Source of the DNA: a phage
Direction: 5' to 3' (one strand)
DNA length: 41,142 nucleotides
Sequence record: PZ019083.1
Positions 25,122 through 28,708 of this stretch are shown here, in pieces. Position numbers and translations under genes: made by a program. Positions within the stretch are counted from its first letter, which is position 1. The number at the start of each line of letters is the position of its first letter. Below the pieces are notes generated by a model. It was not told the DNA's origin. It saw only the letters and a list, made by a program, of their open reading frames with translations, and searched no databases.

Positions 25122-25406
25122 CTAACTATAATAGTTAGCTATTAGGTCGTCAACCTGTTTAAACGAACCAACGACAAAAACATTCGCGCCACGTTTACGC
25201 ATCCGCGCGTGTTCACGTAGCTGGTGCGGGTCTGGCTTCGTGTTTTCGTCTTTCTTAACCTCGACGAACCAGACTATGCCGCCGGGGAGAATTACCAGCA
25301 GGTCAGGAGCGCCTGAGCGCCCCTCGTAAGACAGCTTACGAACGAGGCCACCAATGGCCTCGAACATCTCTTTTGCGTATTTCTGAATCTTGCCTTCCGG
25401 GGTCAT
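25122..25406 (-). CDS. VRR-NUC domain nuclease
   Basis: Motif GAPDLLVILPGGIVWFVEVK typical of VRR-NUC PD-(D/E)XK fold. Confidence 0.65.
   Translation of the reverse strand: MTPEGKIQKYAKEMFEAIGGLVRKLSYEGRSGAPDLLVILPGGIVWFVEVKKDENTKPDPHQLREHARMRKRGANVFVVGSFKQVDDLIANYYS
25125..25153 (-). promoter_or_regulatory. sigma70 promoter TTGACG-17-TATAGT (class B) embedded in 3' end of VRR-NUC gene
   Basis: Same architecture as promoters at 28680 and 30799. Confidence 0.5.
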
Positions 25407-25555
25407 GAGCGCAGAACCCAGGTTATAAACGCTCCTCCGAGAACGGCAACGCCAACAAACTTAAAGAACAGGCCGTAACAGAACATCGCAGCTATTCCCG
25501 CGCCGAGTAACAGTGCGAGCATGGTTACTATCGCCCAAAATACAAACATTGTCAT
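25403..25555 (-). CDS. small membrane protein (50 aa)
   Basis: Two hydrophobic helices; ATGA overlaps on both sides. Confidence 0.35.
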   Translation of the reverse strand: MTMFVFWAIVTMLALLLGAGIAAMFCYGLFFKFVGVAVLGGAFITWVLRS

Positions 25556-25641
25556 AATACGCACCCCTCGCGTTTCGTGTGCTCAATACCGCAGCGCGGA
25601 CAGATTCGGCAGTCTTCTTCGTAGAACCAGTAAATTTTCAT
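25552..25641 (-). CDS. mini zinc-ribbon-like protein (29 aa)
   Basis: Translation MKIYWFYEEDCRICPRCGIEHTKREGCVL (C-x2-C-x2-C ... C); ATGA overlaps on both sides. Confidence 0.3.
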   Translation of the reverse strand: MKIYWFYEEDCRICPRCGIEHTKREGCVL

Positions 25642-25769
25642 TCCAGCACCCACAGATAAATTGCGATGAACATTCCCAATACCGCAGCCATCATGCCGTA
25701 TTGGCCCTCGTGACAATAGACACCGGCGGCAAATCCTGCCAGTAACGCGATAATCAGTTTACTTAGCAT
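25638..25769 (-). CDS. small membrane protein (43 aa)
   Basis: Hydrophobic; starts 11 nt inside DNA polymerase 3' end. Confidence 0.3.
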   Translation of the reverse strand: MLSKLIIALLAGFAAGVYCHEGQYGMMAAVLGMFIAIYLWVLE

Positions 25770-27939
25770 AGCGCTTCATCTCCGCACCTTCTGCCACAAG
25801 AGGGAACCCTTCGGCCCATTCCGGTAATTCGCACATTAATTTTTCCAGTTCAGCCACCGTGTACTCAGGTGTGTCTGGAGTTTCACACACTAATTCATCG
25901 TGTACCGAAAGCACGATGGGGTACCCGCCGCCCTCAACATTAATCATCGCGTATGCGAGTAAATCACGGCACAGCGCCTGAGTGCAGTTTTCCACCAGTT
26001 TACCGGAGTAGGTGTACTGGAAGCCCCACTGACGGGTTAACTGGTTTTCGCCCTGGTACTTGATGCGCACGTTAGTGGACACCTTCCCGTCTTCGTCTGC
26101 CTCTTTAGACACACTTAACCCGACGCCCGGATAAGACATAACGCGGCCCGACGGCAACGTCATGCGCAGCCACCAACCAGCGACTTTGTTGCCGTTGTTA
26201 TCTGTTTCTACGTTACGCGAAAACTTAACTCCCCGCGGACCTGCAGTGAACTCTTTACCTGGGTTGCGGATAGCCGCCATAGCTGCGTCTTCAATATCAC
26301 GCCAGAATGCTACTGTTTCAGGGTGAGACTCCCGCCACATGCGCTTGATAGCGTCACAGGTGCGCCACACTTTCTTATCAAGAATATATGACGGCCGGTC
26401 GTCTTTTTCACCAGGACGTGGTTGTCGCTTGGCTTCCTGAATACGTGCCCACTCATATCCACGTGCGGTAGCGGTCCAGATGTGGTCGGGGAAAGTACCG
26501 TCCATTGTTTTAGCCATATCAACCAGGTCAAGGCCGAGGTTCTTGGCGAACTGTACGAATGCGCCGACACCGCCCGCGTAGCCAAGACCCAATTCACAGG
26601 CTTTACCAATCTGGCGTAAGTCTTTACGTTCTTTCTTAATGTAATCCGGATCCATGCCAAACATCTTACCCGCGGTTACACAGTAAATATCCAGCCCAGC
26701 GCGGAACGTATCGAGCGCGGTTTCTTCTCCCGCCAGCCACGCAAGCCCACGGCCTTCAACGTTAGAGTAATCGGCAACGACAAACTTATGCCCTGCTTCC
26801 GGGATAATGCAGCTACGAACTGTCGATGCCGTCAGCTTGGCTACGTCAAATCGGCGGTGAGCACGACCCTTAAGTAACGCTGAAATGCCTTTATCCAGTT
26901 CATCATCATGATAGTACCCGCGGGCCAGGTTCTGCGGCTGAAAGCCTTTACCCGCCCATCGCAAAGTACGTTTTGCCCCGCCGTACTGTAAACAACCGCG
27001 GCGTCGGTCGTCCGACGAGCGGCCCAACAGCAGCGGGTTATATTTCGTTGATGCGGTGGATGCGGCCCCGAGGCGCATTTCGATAATCGTGCGAGCGTCG
27101 TCCGGTAAATCATCATCCGCCAGCAGGTCGTTAAGCGTCGACTTCTGCGCATTGTGGATGCGGTGCGCTGGCGCAAGTTCACGCAGAATCGGAAGGAAGT
27201 CTTTACCGGTAAGTGAGCCGCCGTATTTGCGTTGGGCTTCTTCCTGTAACTGTGCCTTGTGCTTCTCCACGGCTTCAATCGCTGCTTCTGCCAGCGCTAC
27301 GTCAACCTTAAACCCGCGGTCGTTGATTAACTGGTCCAGTTCCAGTACACGGTCTTCAAACTCGGAGTTACCCCACCGCGGCAGCTTATGGAAGACTTCC
27401 CGCATCGCAGTGATGTCGCTCACGGCGTACTTGATGAACAGCGCCCACTCATCGGGATGTGTTTCAGCGGTGTAGCGGCGGATTTTGTAGTTCTTAGGTG
27501 TCGGTTTAGAAAAACGCTGAATCAGCGCCTTGCCGCGTTTGTCTTTTGCGTTGTCCGCAGACACGCCCAGCACTTCGCACAATGCGTCAAGTGAACCCGG
27601 CAGCGCGTGGCGAAACGCCCAAATCATCGTATCAATGGTGTTGCTTACCGGAATATCAAAGTCCCAGCAGTGTTTCATGATGAGCCTGTCGAACATTGAG
27701 CCGTTGTGCCACACCATCTTAATGCGGCTGTTTGGCTTAACCAGACGGCGTAAGGCGCGGTGCAAATCCCCCGGCATGTCGCTGCCGTCTGTGCAATCCC
27801 ATACCTGCACAGGCTCGTCGTCAAAAGCGTATGTGCAGATAAGCACTTCGGTAGTTGGGTGCTCTGCGTAAGCGTATGAACCGACTTTCTTTAAATCGGC
27901 TTCGGAGAATGTTTCAAAGTCTAAGAACAGGTAACTCAT
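25759..27939 (-). CDS. DNA polymerase, family A with N-terminal 3'-5' exonuclease
   Basis: N-terminal LDFETFS exo motif, 726 aa, Pol A-like C-terminal region. Confidence 0.8.
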   Translation of the reverse strand: MSYLFLDFETFSEADLKKVGSYAYAEHPTTEVLICTYAFDDEPVQVWDCTDGSDMPGDLHRALRRLVKPNSRIKMVWHNGSMFDRLIMKHCWDFDIPVSNTIDTMIWAFRHALPGSLDALCEVLGVSADNAKDKRGKALIQRFSKPTPKNYKIRRYTAETHPDEWALFIKYAVSDITAMREVFHKLPRWGNSEFEDRVLELDQLINDRGFKVDVALAEAAIEAVEKHKAQLQEEAQRKYGGSLTGKDFLPILRELAPAHRIHNAQKSTLNDLLADDDLPDDARTIIEMRLGAASTASTKYNPLLLGRSSDDRRRGCLQYGGAKRTLRWAGKGFQPQNLARGYYHDDELDKGISALLKGRAHRRFDVAKLTASTVRSCIIPEAGHKFVVADYSNVEGRGLAWLAGEETALDTFRAGLDIYCVTAGKMFGMDPDYIKKERKDLRQIGKACELGLGYAGGVGAFVQFAKNLGLDLVDMAKTMDGTFPDHIWTATARGYEWARIQEAKRQPRPGEKDDRPSYILDKKVWRTCDAIKRMWRESHPETVAFWRDIEDAAMAAIRNPGKEFTAGPRGVKFSRNVETDNNGNKVAGWWLRMTLPSGRVMSYPGVGLSVSKEADEDGKVSTNVRIKYQGENQLTRQWGFQYTYSGKLVENCTQALCRDLLAYAMINVEGGGYPIVLSVHDELVCETPDTPEYTVAELEKLMCELPEWAEGFPLVAEGAEMKRYAK

Positions 27940-28679: not shown

Positions 28680-28708
28680 ACTATAATAGCTAACTATTCA
28701 GGTGTCAA
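28680..28708 (-). promoter_or_regulatory. sigma70 promoter TTGACA-17-TATAGT (class B)
   Basis: Consensus -35, 17-bp spacer containing GAATAGT element. Confidence 0.6.

Follow-up and report, generated by a model that had tools for sequence, protein, structure and literature searches.

What is encoded between the genes for a DNA polymerase and a VRR-NUC nuclease in the window (the whole stretch of phage DNA analysed, 41,142 nt, sequence record PZ019083.1), and what might the products do? The window is the genome of a Guernseyvirinae (Kagunavirus-like) phage, a virulent siphophage; it is matched by 626 phage records, of which Escherichia phage P AB-2017 (Kagunavirus, 89%) ranks first, and the gene order of phage Bas73 is collinear with it. 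The gap between the two enzyme genes, within a 367-base stretch of the minus strand (25403-25769), is tiled by three micro-genes, designated orfA, orfB and orfC (Table 1), which sit, between polymerase and VRR-NUC, within the replication/recombination gene block. The initial annotation had described three consecutive minus-strand ORFs of 43, 29 and 50 aa, each starting on the stop of the one before it (ATGA), the first beginning inside the polymerase 3' end and the last ending on the VRR-NUC start. All coordinates and junctions were confirmed, with an 11-nt overlap between the orfA start and the polymerase 3' end. The Pfam VRR_NUC match of the downstream flank was weak; relatives carry the same nuclease annotation.

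Table 1. Positions of the micro-genes, their flanking genes and putative expression signals in the window
Feature	Position	Strand	Remarks
Family A DNA polymerase gene, upstream flank	25759..27939	-	stop TAA 25761-25759; annotated as DNA polymerase in relatives
orfA	25638..25769	-	ATG 25769 to TGA 25638; 43 aa; MLSKLIIALLAGFAAGVYCHEGQYGMMAAVLGMFIAIYLWVLE; predicted two-helix membrane hairpin
orfB	25552..25641	-	ATG 25641 to TGA 25552; 29 aa; MKIYWFYEEDCRICPRCGIEHTKREGCVL; Cys-rich soluble peptide
orfC	25403..25555	-	ATG 25555 to TGA 25403; 50 aa; very hydrophobic
VRR-NUC / Holliday-junction-resolvase-like nuclease gene, downstream flank	25122..25406	-	ATG 25406; phrog_93, phrog_5702
ATGA 4-nt overlap, orfA/orfB	25638-25641	-	
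ATGA 4-nt overlap, orfB/orfC	25552-25555	-	
ATGA 4-nt overlap, orfC/VRR-NUC	25403-25406	-	
GGAG Shine-Dalgarno (SD) for orfA	25780..25783	-	in last polymerase codons, 9-10 nt before ATG
GAGGGG SD for the gene after orfB (here orfC)	25564..25569	-	in orfB codons E25-G26; -8.1 kcal/mol
Promoter-like site	28680..28708	-	TTGACA-17-TATAGT, 11/12; nearest strong upstream candidate; consensus scan only

Coding status of the three ORFs

The ratio dN/dS was calculated from pooled pairwise estimates that ignore phylogeny in two genome sets (the second matched), and in frame it was 0.20-0.22 for orfA, 0.05-0.12 for orfB and 0.17-0.18 for orfC, compared with 0.09 for the polymerase C-terminus, 0.14 for VRR-NUC, and 0.86-2.3 for the micro-ORFs read out of frame. 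Internal stops were absent from all unique alleles of orfA (n = 43), orfB (n = 47) and orfC (n = 24). Conservation of the frames and of their overlaps in relatives, which the initial annotation had named as a check, was found both in the synonymous-site pattern and in the -4 ATGA junctions, which are kept across architectures. Judged from this pattern of substitutions, orfA, orfB and orfC are genuine protein-coding genes and encode real micro-proteins, as had been proposed.

That the frames are open by chance, or that the real gene is a 74-aa ORF on the plus strand (25521-25745), has next to no probability. The ORFs are very short, and in relatives the antisense frame stays open over 52-97 codons; however, when the gap was shuffled 20,000 times with dinucleotides preserved, 131 of the shuffles were loosely tiled by ORFs and a single one had exact 4-nt overlaps at all junctions, and the selection is in the frames of the micro-genes. 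The antisense ORF itself was rejected as a gene (dN/dS of 1.28; 5 of the 13 collinear relatives have stops in it).

The micro-genes are already known as hypothetical proteins in related phage records and as PHROG families. Profile matches were obtained for orfA with phrog_10404 (residues 1-43 of 43, E = 2.3e-30), for residues 1-28 of orfB with positions 5-32 of the 36 of phrog_38225 (E = 2.5e-22), and for orfC with phrog_14925 (residues 1-50 of 50, E = 2.6e-33). Micro-genes are annotated as CDSs, labelled hypothetical proteins in GenBank, in Bas73, SE124_2FR and P AB-2017. The Guernseyvirinae counterparts (Bas73_0041/0040/0039; P_59/P_60 of P AB-2017; ORF38/ORF37 of LSPA1) are arranged in the same order and with the same junctions, again between polymerase and VRR-NUC, and their protein identities are 82-100%; nothing of substance differs, and the copies in the window are new alleles. 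Since the micro-genes are already listed in these records, the finding is correct but ordinary. All three families are limited to Guernseyvirinae, and distant homologues, fusions or named relatives were not found. Searches of Pfam, NCBIfam and PADLOC with the micro-proteins gave no significant matches, and a search of the stretch against Rfam gave no element. No discussion of these ORFs was found in papers on Guernseyvirinae, among them that on the expanded BASEL collection (bioRxiv 10.1101/2024.09.12.612763).

A variable slot with a conserved core gene

Judged from the gene content of relatives, the micro-genes occupy a hypervariable slot in which orfB is the conserved core and orfA and orfC are optional cassettes. 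Essentially all Jerseyvirus/Kagunavirus relatives carry orfB (about 445 phage records), about half carry orfA (222 phage records by tblastn) and about a quarter carry orfC (121 phage records). The 54 loci compared comprised 5 with orfB alone, 2 with orfB and orfC, 24 with orfA and orfB, and 23 with all three, the last two groups with or without other inserts. Even among loci whose VRR-NUC proteins are at least 95% identical, five architectures were present (ABC, AB, BC, AB+E and AB+D), and orfA and orfC are gained and lost in exact gene-sized units. Other occupants of this slot in relatives are HNH homing endonucleases and small ORFs of 64 aa (soluble) and 23-25 aa (single-TM). Synonymous diversity is lower in orfA and orfC. 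Phage morons and accessory cassettes likewise show gene-sized presence and absence among close relatives, but classical morons have their own promoter and terminator, whereas no strong site resembling either was detected for orfA and orfC within 25403-25769.

In the form lacking orfA, a 116-nt deletion joins the first seven codons of orfA in frame to orfB, which argues that orfB is kept under selection; in such Jersey-type genomes orfB reuses the orfA start. Residues 8-27 of orfB are almost invariant across the 54 loci while the Cys codons vary between TGC and TGT; orfB is conserved and probably required. The truncated orfA copy in ER11 (33 aa) and the copy at 70% identity in LSPA1 suggest, on the other hand, that orfA is dispensable. 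N-terminally extended forms of orfB (54 aa from a TTG or 33 aa from a GTG start) were rejected, the upstream extension being interrupted in most relatives. Rare A-B fusion proteins of 72-73 aa are frameshift variants represented by one to three sequences each, and inspection of orfA by eye revealed no slippery heptamer.

These combinations bear on the small membrane complex that the initial annotation had suggested. Because the three genes occur independently (B alone, A+B, B+C, A+B+C, and A+B with other inserts), an obligate three-part complex is excluded. The phi29 proteins p16.7 and p1 are membrane organisers of phage DNA replication, and p16.7 has a soluble DNA-binding domain. A model in which orfA and orfC anchor orfB in an obligate three-subunit membrane complex, possibly tethering replication as p16.7/p1 do, was rated as very improbable. 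The genes are neighbours in the replication operon and stoichiometrically coupled, and the phi29 proteins are likewise membrane proteins encoded with replication genes; nevertheless, orfB stands alone in most Jerseyviruses, pairings of orfB with either orfA or orfC are frequent as well, and orfA decays in some lineages. Moreover, many relatives dispense with orfA and orfC, and the two, unlike p16.7, are hydrophobic over nearly their full length, with no soluble domain for binding DNA or protein.

Probable translational coupling and transcript

The candidate SD of orfA (best anti-SD duplex, -6.6 kcal/mol) and the one embedded in orfB are both placed within the preceding coding sequence (Table 1). 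In the latter, GAG is conserved at all 54 loci and GGG at 53 of them, with synonymous variation in the adjoining codons, and the distance from GAGGGG to the next ATG is 7-8 nt regardless of which gene comes next. The SD matches of orfB (-3.7 kcal/mol) and VRR-NUC (-3.1 kcal/mol) are weak, and together with the ATGA overlaps they point to coupling by re-initiation. In the proposed scheme, orfA would be translated from the GGAG within the polymerase 3' end, orfB, with its poor SD, would be reached by re-initiation at the ATGA overlap, and the gene after orfB would initiate from the invariant GAGGGG in the last codons of orfB. As orfC displaces VRR-NUC from GAGGGG and the SD of VRR-NUC itself is poor, VRR-NUC would depend here on re-initiation at the ATGA of orfC. 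The chain of ATGA overlaps is real but not unusual, since ATGA junctions are the normal style of this genome: 34 candidate junctions have long open frames on both sides, several of them at obvious gene boundaries (558, 9121, 9513, 17848 and 24903).

The same weak SDs could mean that the chain merely relays ribosomes from polymerase to VRR-NUC by termination and re-initiation, the peptides being functionless. Tight tiling in the architectures of all relatives (junctions of -11 to +5 nt), which extends to fillers that seem to have decayed, like the 23-25-aa ORF (loci L009, L018 and L054) and an HNH remnant (L051), also speaks for this relay. It was nonetheless judged improbable, because purifying selection on the amino acids (dN/dS of 0.05-0.22) matches that on the flanking enzymes in strength and the 20-residue core of orfB is almost unchanged between loci that differ in its codons. 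In addition, VRR-NUC has a good SD (GAGGGG) when it directly follows orfB, so a relay through orfC is not needed.

With respect to transcription, no strong promoter-like or terminator-like site was detected within 25403-25769, where a 9/12 match to a promoter and a 5-bp stem, itself weak, were the only candidates, and the micro-genes are therefore probably read from the polymerase transcript. The strongest terminator-like site on the minus strand is at 22851-22832. If the upstream candidate promoter in Table 1 is active, an SSB-like gene, the polymerase gene, orfA-orfC and VRR-NUC would be placed on one transcript.

Possible roles of the encoded peptides

The initial annotation had assigned orfB a zinc ribbon with four Cys in a C-x2-C-x2-C...C arrangement. 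The arrangement is present (C11-x2-C14-x2-C17-x9-C27; GRAVY, -0.43), whereas the class assignment was not supported. A zinc ribbon has two CxxC-type knuckles with four ligands, and orfB has a single CPxCG knuckle (CPRCG, C14 and C17) plus the isolated C11 and C27; C11 is variable, being replaced by R or F in 6/54 loci. By its Cys spacing, orfB is thus not a canonical zinc ribbon. No significant match was obtained in Pfam (top, zf_C2H2_ZNF598, E = 0.22) or among PDB profiles (top, S27ae, E = 0.082, covering the 6-7-residue knuckle alone). The knuckle 'ICPRCG' has the same form as the CPxCG knuckles of zinc-knuckle/zinc-ribbon mini-proteins (S27ae, RpoM, Nop10), but those have two knuckles, whereas the other candidate ligands of orfB are single residues (C11, H21 and C27), and orfB, with 29 aa, falls below all of these domains in length (all E >= 0.08). 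A single-sequence AF2 model of orfB, with low confidence (pLDDT 60) and no secondary structure, was uninformative about the beta-hairpin that unites the ligands of a zinc ribbon. When its 33-aa form was searched against 1.84 billion representatives, the matches were limited to its own cluster, a single frameshifted fusion of A with B and a single spurious repeat protein. A derivation of orfB as a zinc-finger relic of the neighbouring HNH endonuclease was rejected (hhalign probability, 3%; 'CxRCG' alone aligns).

Tentatively, orfB may be a knuckle peptide that coordinates a metal through C14, C17, C27 and either C11 or H21, and may act as a small accessory protein or regulator of the replication/recombination proteins co-translated with it. 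That it holds an iron-sulfur cluster instead of zinc appears unlikely: C11-x2-C14-x2-C17 with the distal Cys has the spacing of a ferredoxin-type motif, and one of the weak PDB matches is to the rubredoxin-like iron site of 3-hydroxyanthranilate dioxygenase, but V or I, in place of the P of that motif, comes after the distal Cys, the first Cys is Arg or Phe in the six loci noted above, CPxCG is the classic signature of a zinc knuckle, and none of the PDB matches is significant. Resemblance to that iron site is the likely reason why orfB is labelled '3-hydroxyanthranilate 3,4-dioxygenase' in phage JSSK01. orfB lacks an annotation in many Jerseyvirus records, and the same holds for P AB-2017, a close relative in Kagunavirus.

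The claim that the other two ORFs are strongly hydrophobic was upheld by GRAVY values of +1.40 for orfA and +1.82 for orfC. A two-helix hairpin is predicted for orfA by an AF2 model built from 71 sequences (helices 2-18 and 23-42, pLDDT 79), and orfC has two hydrophobic segments with K32 between them; K and R together account for no more than one or two residues in orfA and orfC. Homologue searches returned near-identical phage proteins only, in 79 protein clusters for orfA (nearly all at least 79% identical) and 102 for orfC (all at least 70% identical). A paralogy of the two, suggested by eye (ALLxG...C-[HY]-G...AVLG..FI..WVL), was rejected, since their hhalign score of 9.3 was below that of column-shuffled controls (10.9 +/- 2.4), 147 of 200 shuffles scoring at least as high as the real alignment.

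Given their small size and one or two hydrophobic helices, orfA and orfC could be lysis proteins (holin, antiholin or pinholin-like), yet this was considered extremely improbable. In Bas73, two holins and an endolysin are clustered on the other strand at 40.6-41.8 kb, about 13 kb away from the micro-genes in the replication block (27.2-27.5 kb), and a third locus carries the annotated spanins. Both peptides lack a charged C-terminal tail, ending in '...WVLE' (orfA) and '...WVLRS' (orfC) with one charge each, and many fully lytic relatives do without these two genes of the replication block.

Superinfection exclusion or host takeover is the role of small accessory membrane proteins of phages such as T4 Imm and HK97 gp15. 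Like these tiny one- or two-TM proteins, orfA and orfC are variably present and are not needed by every phage of the group, but they share no sequence similarity with them and are encoded inside a replication operon with no strong promoter-like site of their own. With low confidence, orfA and orfC may be dispensable inner-membrane micro-proteins that stay outside the replisome and act on the host envelope, for instance in superinfection exclusion, host takeover or counter-defence; for a link of either to exclusion or defence, no PADLOC matches and no homologues of known function were found.

As one explanation, three genuine genes in a variable slot, with the expression scheme and functions proposed above, are regarded as the probable account of the locus. 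A bolder reading, to which a rather low probability was assigned, is that orfB is a hitherto unrecognised metal-binding core micro-subunit of Guernseyvirinae replication and recombination, partnering polymerase or VRR-NUC, and that an HNH-associated hot spot next to it swaps membrane effectors; jointly with such a subunit, and at the same rather low level, orfA, orfC and the 23-25-aa ORF would be interchangeable host-interaction effectors, e.g., for exclusion or counter-defence. A recurrent coupling of small TM ORFs upstream of VRR-NUC in unrelated phages was not upheld: some cases were seen, and in a crude matched control they amounted to 2/14 lineages upstream compared with 1/14 downstream, which does not demonstrate enrichment.

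The practical value of the present account, in which three genuine genes share a variable slot, lies in annotation: a core gene, orfB, has been left out of many GenBank records and mislabelled in at least one. As Jerseyvirus and Kagunavirus phages are candidates for therapy and biocontrol and small chassis for synthetic biology, the conservation of orfB, the dispensability of orfA and orfC and the ribosome-binding site embedded in orfB are useful to know, and the location of the next gene's ribosome-binding site in the orfB 3' end matters for genome engineering. The current view of phage biology is unchanged by these findings; the slot between polymerase and VRR-NUC is a tidy natural case of gene-sized gain and loss with the putative translational coupling preserved.

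Layout of the locus and coding status of the three ORFs

The interval between the family A DNA polymerase and VRR-NUC nuclease genes (hereafter the slot) was read on the minus strand, and the chain of three ATGA-coupled micro-ORFs described in the initial annotation (orfA, orfB and orfC) was borne out at the positions listed below. When the gap was shuffled 20,000 times with dinucleotides preserved, only one shuffle showed ORF tiling with a 4-nt overlap at each junction; ATGA junctions, in which the next ATG lies on the preceding TGA stop, are the normal style across this genome, and the coupling of orfA-C is therefore unremarkable by itself.

Positions of features in and around the slot
Feature	Position	Strand	Remark
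Promoter-like site	28708-28680		closest strong site upstream of the slot (consensus scan)
Family A DNA polymerase	27939-25759	minus	TAA stop at 25761-25759
Slot	25403-25769
orfA, 43 aa	25769-25638	minus	ATG at 25769, 11 nt inside the polymerase gene; TGA at 25640-25638
Antisense ORF, 74 aa	25521-25745
orfB, 29 aa	25641-25552	minus	ATG within ATGA of orfA
orfC, 50 aa	25555-25403	minus	start at ATGA of orfB
VRR-NUC	start 25406	minus	ATG in last ATGA, on orfC stop
Promoter-like match	25125-25153	minus	TTGACG-17-TATAGT, within VRR-NUC 3′ end
63-aa ORF	25091-24900	minus	phrog_4879; ATGA-coupled to SNF2-type helicase gene
Terminator-like hairpin	22851-22832		strong (consensus scan)

The window covers all or nearly all of the genome of a Guernseyvirinae siphophage near Kagunavirus. 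It is collinear in gene order with phage Bas73: the plus strand carries the terminase and structural genes, the minus strand has a block of primase-helicase, exonuclease, Gp2.5-like SSB, polymerase, orfA-C, VRR-NUC, the 63-aa ORF and SNF2-type helicase, and the holins and endolysin lie away from this block. The 1-kb region matched 626 phage records (top, Escherichia phage P AB-2017, 89%) and none of the complete E. coli genomes. Inside the slot, the consensus scan turned up neither a strong promoter-like nor a strong terminator-like site, and Rfam gave no match. Downstream, a sigma-70-like promoter match (10/12) lies just upstream of the 63-aa ORF.

Full-length, highly significant PHROG matches were obtained for orfA (phrog_10404), orfB (phrog_38225) and orfC (phrog_14925), all families without assigned function, and GenBank records of relatives list the three as hypothetical proteins. 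From 79 IMG/VR loci collected through VRR-NUC, Nei-Gojobori dN/dS was pooled over the relatives carrying each ORF, giving in-frame values of 0.20 (orfA), 0.12 (orfB) and 0.18 (orfC), compared with 0.09 for the polymerase C-terminus, 0.14 for VRR-NUC, and 0.86-2.3 in the two other same-strand frames. The picture was unchanged in the 19 genomes having all five segments (orfB, 0.05), and no internal stop occurred in 43 orfA, 47 orfB and 24 orfC unique alleles. With dN/dS low in frame and stops absent, the lack of frame conservation in relatives that the initial annotation had named as evidence against the micro-proteins was therefore not found, and on these comparative grounds the three are real genes. 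The antisense ORF was rejected (dN/dS 1.28; stops interrupt it in 5 of 13 collinear relatives).

Content and turnover of the slot

Slot contents were tallied over 54 loci. Five have orfB alone, in a gap of 89-90 nt (Jersey type), two orfB and orfC, 24 orfA and orfB, and 23 all three. Some loci of the last two classes carry further inserts, namely a soluble 64-aa ORF containing CxxC, a 23-25-aa single-TM ORF, HNH homing endonucleases or a decayed HNH fragment. Where VRR-NUC shares at least 95% identity with that of the window, five architectures occur, and in four loci (L016, L020, L032 and L039) near-identical A-B-C genes stand beside a polymerase C-terminus only 67% identical; the slot therefore turns over by recombination and is a hot spot for the exchange of gene-sized units. 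Synonymous divergence (pS) in the 19 matched genomes was 0.20 for orfA and 0.28 for orfC, and higher for the polymerase C-terminus (0.57), orfB (0.38) and VRR-NUC (0.36). Together with the four mosaics, the low orfA and orfC values suggest either recent horizontal spread of cassettes or extra constraint at synonymous sites.

In orfA-less genomes orfB begins 'MLSKLII-YYFREEDC...', a 116-nt deletion having linked orfB in frame to the start and initial seven codons of orfA; this fusion indicates selection retaining orfB, with orfA expendable. In addition, phage ER11 has a shortened orfA of 33 aa, and the LSPA1 copy shares only 70% identity. Phage-database records number about 445 for orfB, 222 for orfA (199 full length) and 121 for orfC, all from Salmonella, Escherichia and related Guernseyvirinae phages. 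The distribution marks orfB as the core gene and orfA and orfC as accessory. Since the three vary independently across loci, the small membrane complex proposed initially is excluded in an obligate three-part version, and the membrane-complex reading in general finds no support.

Free-standing HNH/endonuclease-VII-type homing endonuclease genes (168-235 aa) lie at two slot junctions in some relatives, polymerase-orfA (L002/L006; a different gene in L030) and orfB-VRR-NUC (L045/L047), and also in L053, making the slot a landing site for such genes; L051 retains a 43-aa N-terminal remnant. The soluble ORF (63-64 aa; MSNKPFSKKLAALVDMPEWEF...CAGCTHKG...; no PADLOC match) is another optional cassette with ATGA at both ends, replacing orfC in L004, L011, L049 and L050 and lying between orfB and orfC in L019, L021, L027, L032 and L035. 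The 23-25-aa ORF, in the place of orfC in L009, L054 and L018, has the first codons (MTM...) in common with orfC, and in L009 and L054 also 'GVAVL'; it may derive from orfC by internal deletion, the nucleotide alignment being suggestive only. The more distant relatives L053, L055 and L056 (polymerase C-terminus 65-72% identical) carry in the slot a 111-133-aa protein overlapping the VRR-NUC start, with an HExxH motif (HECYH, HEAMH, HECVH), which may be a small metallopeptidase-like protein.

The three families are confined to Guernseyvirinae. Searches of 5.8 billion proteins returned 79 orfA clusters (identity 79% or more in nearly all) and 102 orfC clusters (70% or more in all), none with a functional name; those having long contigs were on phage-sized ones (about 40-45 kb). 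With orfB as query, an exhaustive HMMER search across 1.84 billion representatives recovered its own cluster, a single A-B frameshift fusion, one spurious repeat protein and no others, and nothing significant was found for orfA-C in Pfam, NCBIfam or PADLOC. Rare 72-73-aa proteins (P0072, P0075, P0076, P0077 and P0079; 1-3 sequences each) combine the orfA N-terminal part with full orfB through a frameshift in the second orfA helix; the probable cause is sequencing error or natural frameshift mutation, not programmed frameshifting. In distant phages (L060, L064/L067/L070/L073, L068 and L083; VRR-NUC homologues 37-46% identical), unrelated small hydrophobic ORFs of 40-69 aa lie directly upstream of VRR-NUC, most of them with an overlap of 4-8 nt (the VRR-NUC start of L068 is uncertain), and L079 has a 26-aa CCHC knuckle ORF there; a crude control counted small hydrophobic ORFs in 2/14 lineages upstream vs 1/14 downstream, no clear enrichment.

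Translation signals and predicted products

The predicted Shine-Dalgarno (SD) sequence of orfA (GGAG, 9-10 nt upstream, -6.6 kcal/mol) lies inside the polymerase gene. Anti-SD matches are weak for orfB (-3.7 kcal/mol) and VRR-NUC (-3.1 kcal/mol), which would probably be translated by ribosomes that terminate at the ATGA overlaps and re-initiate there. The strong predicted SD of orfC (GAGGGG, -8.1 kcal/mol) is made of orfB codons E25-G26, fixed at synonymous positions (GAG 54/54, GGG 53/54 loci) while those of R24, C27, E20 and T22 vary freely, and is always 7-8 nt ahead of the next ATG, whether of orfC, the 64-aa ORF, the 23-25-aa ORF, an HNH gene or VRR-NUC; the orfB 3′ end therefore serves two purposes. 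With orfC inserted, VRR-NUC would be parted from GAGGGG and depend on orfC translation. Constraint at the amino-acid level contradicts a pure ribosome-relay role for orfA-C.

The hydrophilic orfB product has Cys residues at 11, 14, 17 and 27. Residues 8-27 (EEDCRICPRCGIEHTKREGC) are almost invariant over the 54 loci while Cys codons switch between TGC and TGT; of the candidate ligands, C14 and C27 are conserved in 54/54, C17 in 53/54, H21 in 52/54 and C11 in 48/54 (R in five, F in one), C11 and H21 never being changed together. The initial label of zinc ribbon is not warranted: there is one CPxCG knuckle, to which the only PDB and Pfam matches, all insignificant, were made, and the AF2 model was uninformative. 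OrfB is a Cys-rich, probably metal-binding knuckle peptide, its site possibly binding Fe-S rather than Zn. It is a soluble core product with conserved Cys/His residues, translated together with polymerase and nuclease; our best guess, at low confidence, is that it serves replication/recombination as a metal-stabilised peptide, either accessory or regulatory. A 32-aa form in phage JSSK01 (L087, OQ442786.1 30160-30258) is labelled '3-hydroxyanthranilate 3,4-dioxygenase', likely because of an insignificant likeness to that enzyme's rubredoxin-like CPxCG site; orfB is unannotated in many Jerseyvirus records and in Kagunavirus P AB-2017.

OrfA and orfC are strongly hydrophobic, as initially described (GRAVY 1.40 and 1.82). 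AlphaFold2 (71 sequences, pLDDT 79) placed orfA helices at 2-18 and 23-42 around a C19-H20-E21-G22 linker, a predicted hairpin of two short hydrophobic helices with presumed membrane insertion and topology. In orfC, K32 separates two hydrophobic segments and R49 is the sole other charge. A holin role conflicts with their position, the lack of a charged tail and their absence from many lytic relatives. Being optional, hydrophobic, horizontally shuffled and sometimes decayed, they may, as a tentative guess, be accessory inner-membrane effectors in host takeover, superinfection exclusion or counter-defence.

OrfA-C belong to catalogued, uncharacterised phage protein families annotated in related genomes. 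The additions are modest: the division into core orfB and accessory orfA and orfC, a slot that recombines in gene-sized units, and an orfB that bears the SD of its downstream neighbour.
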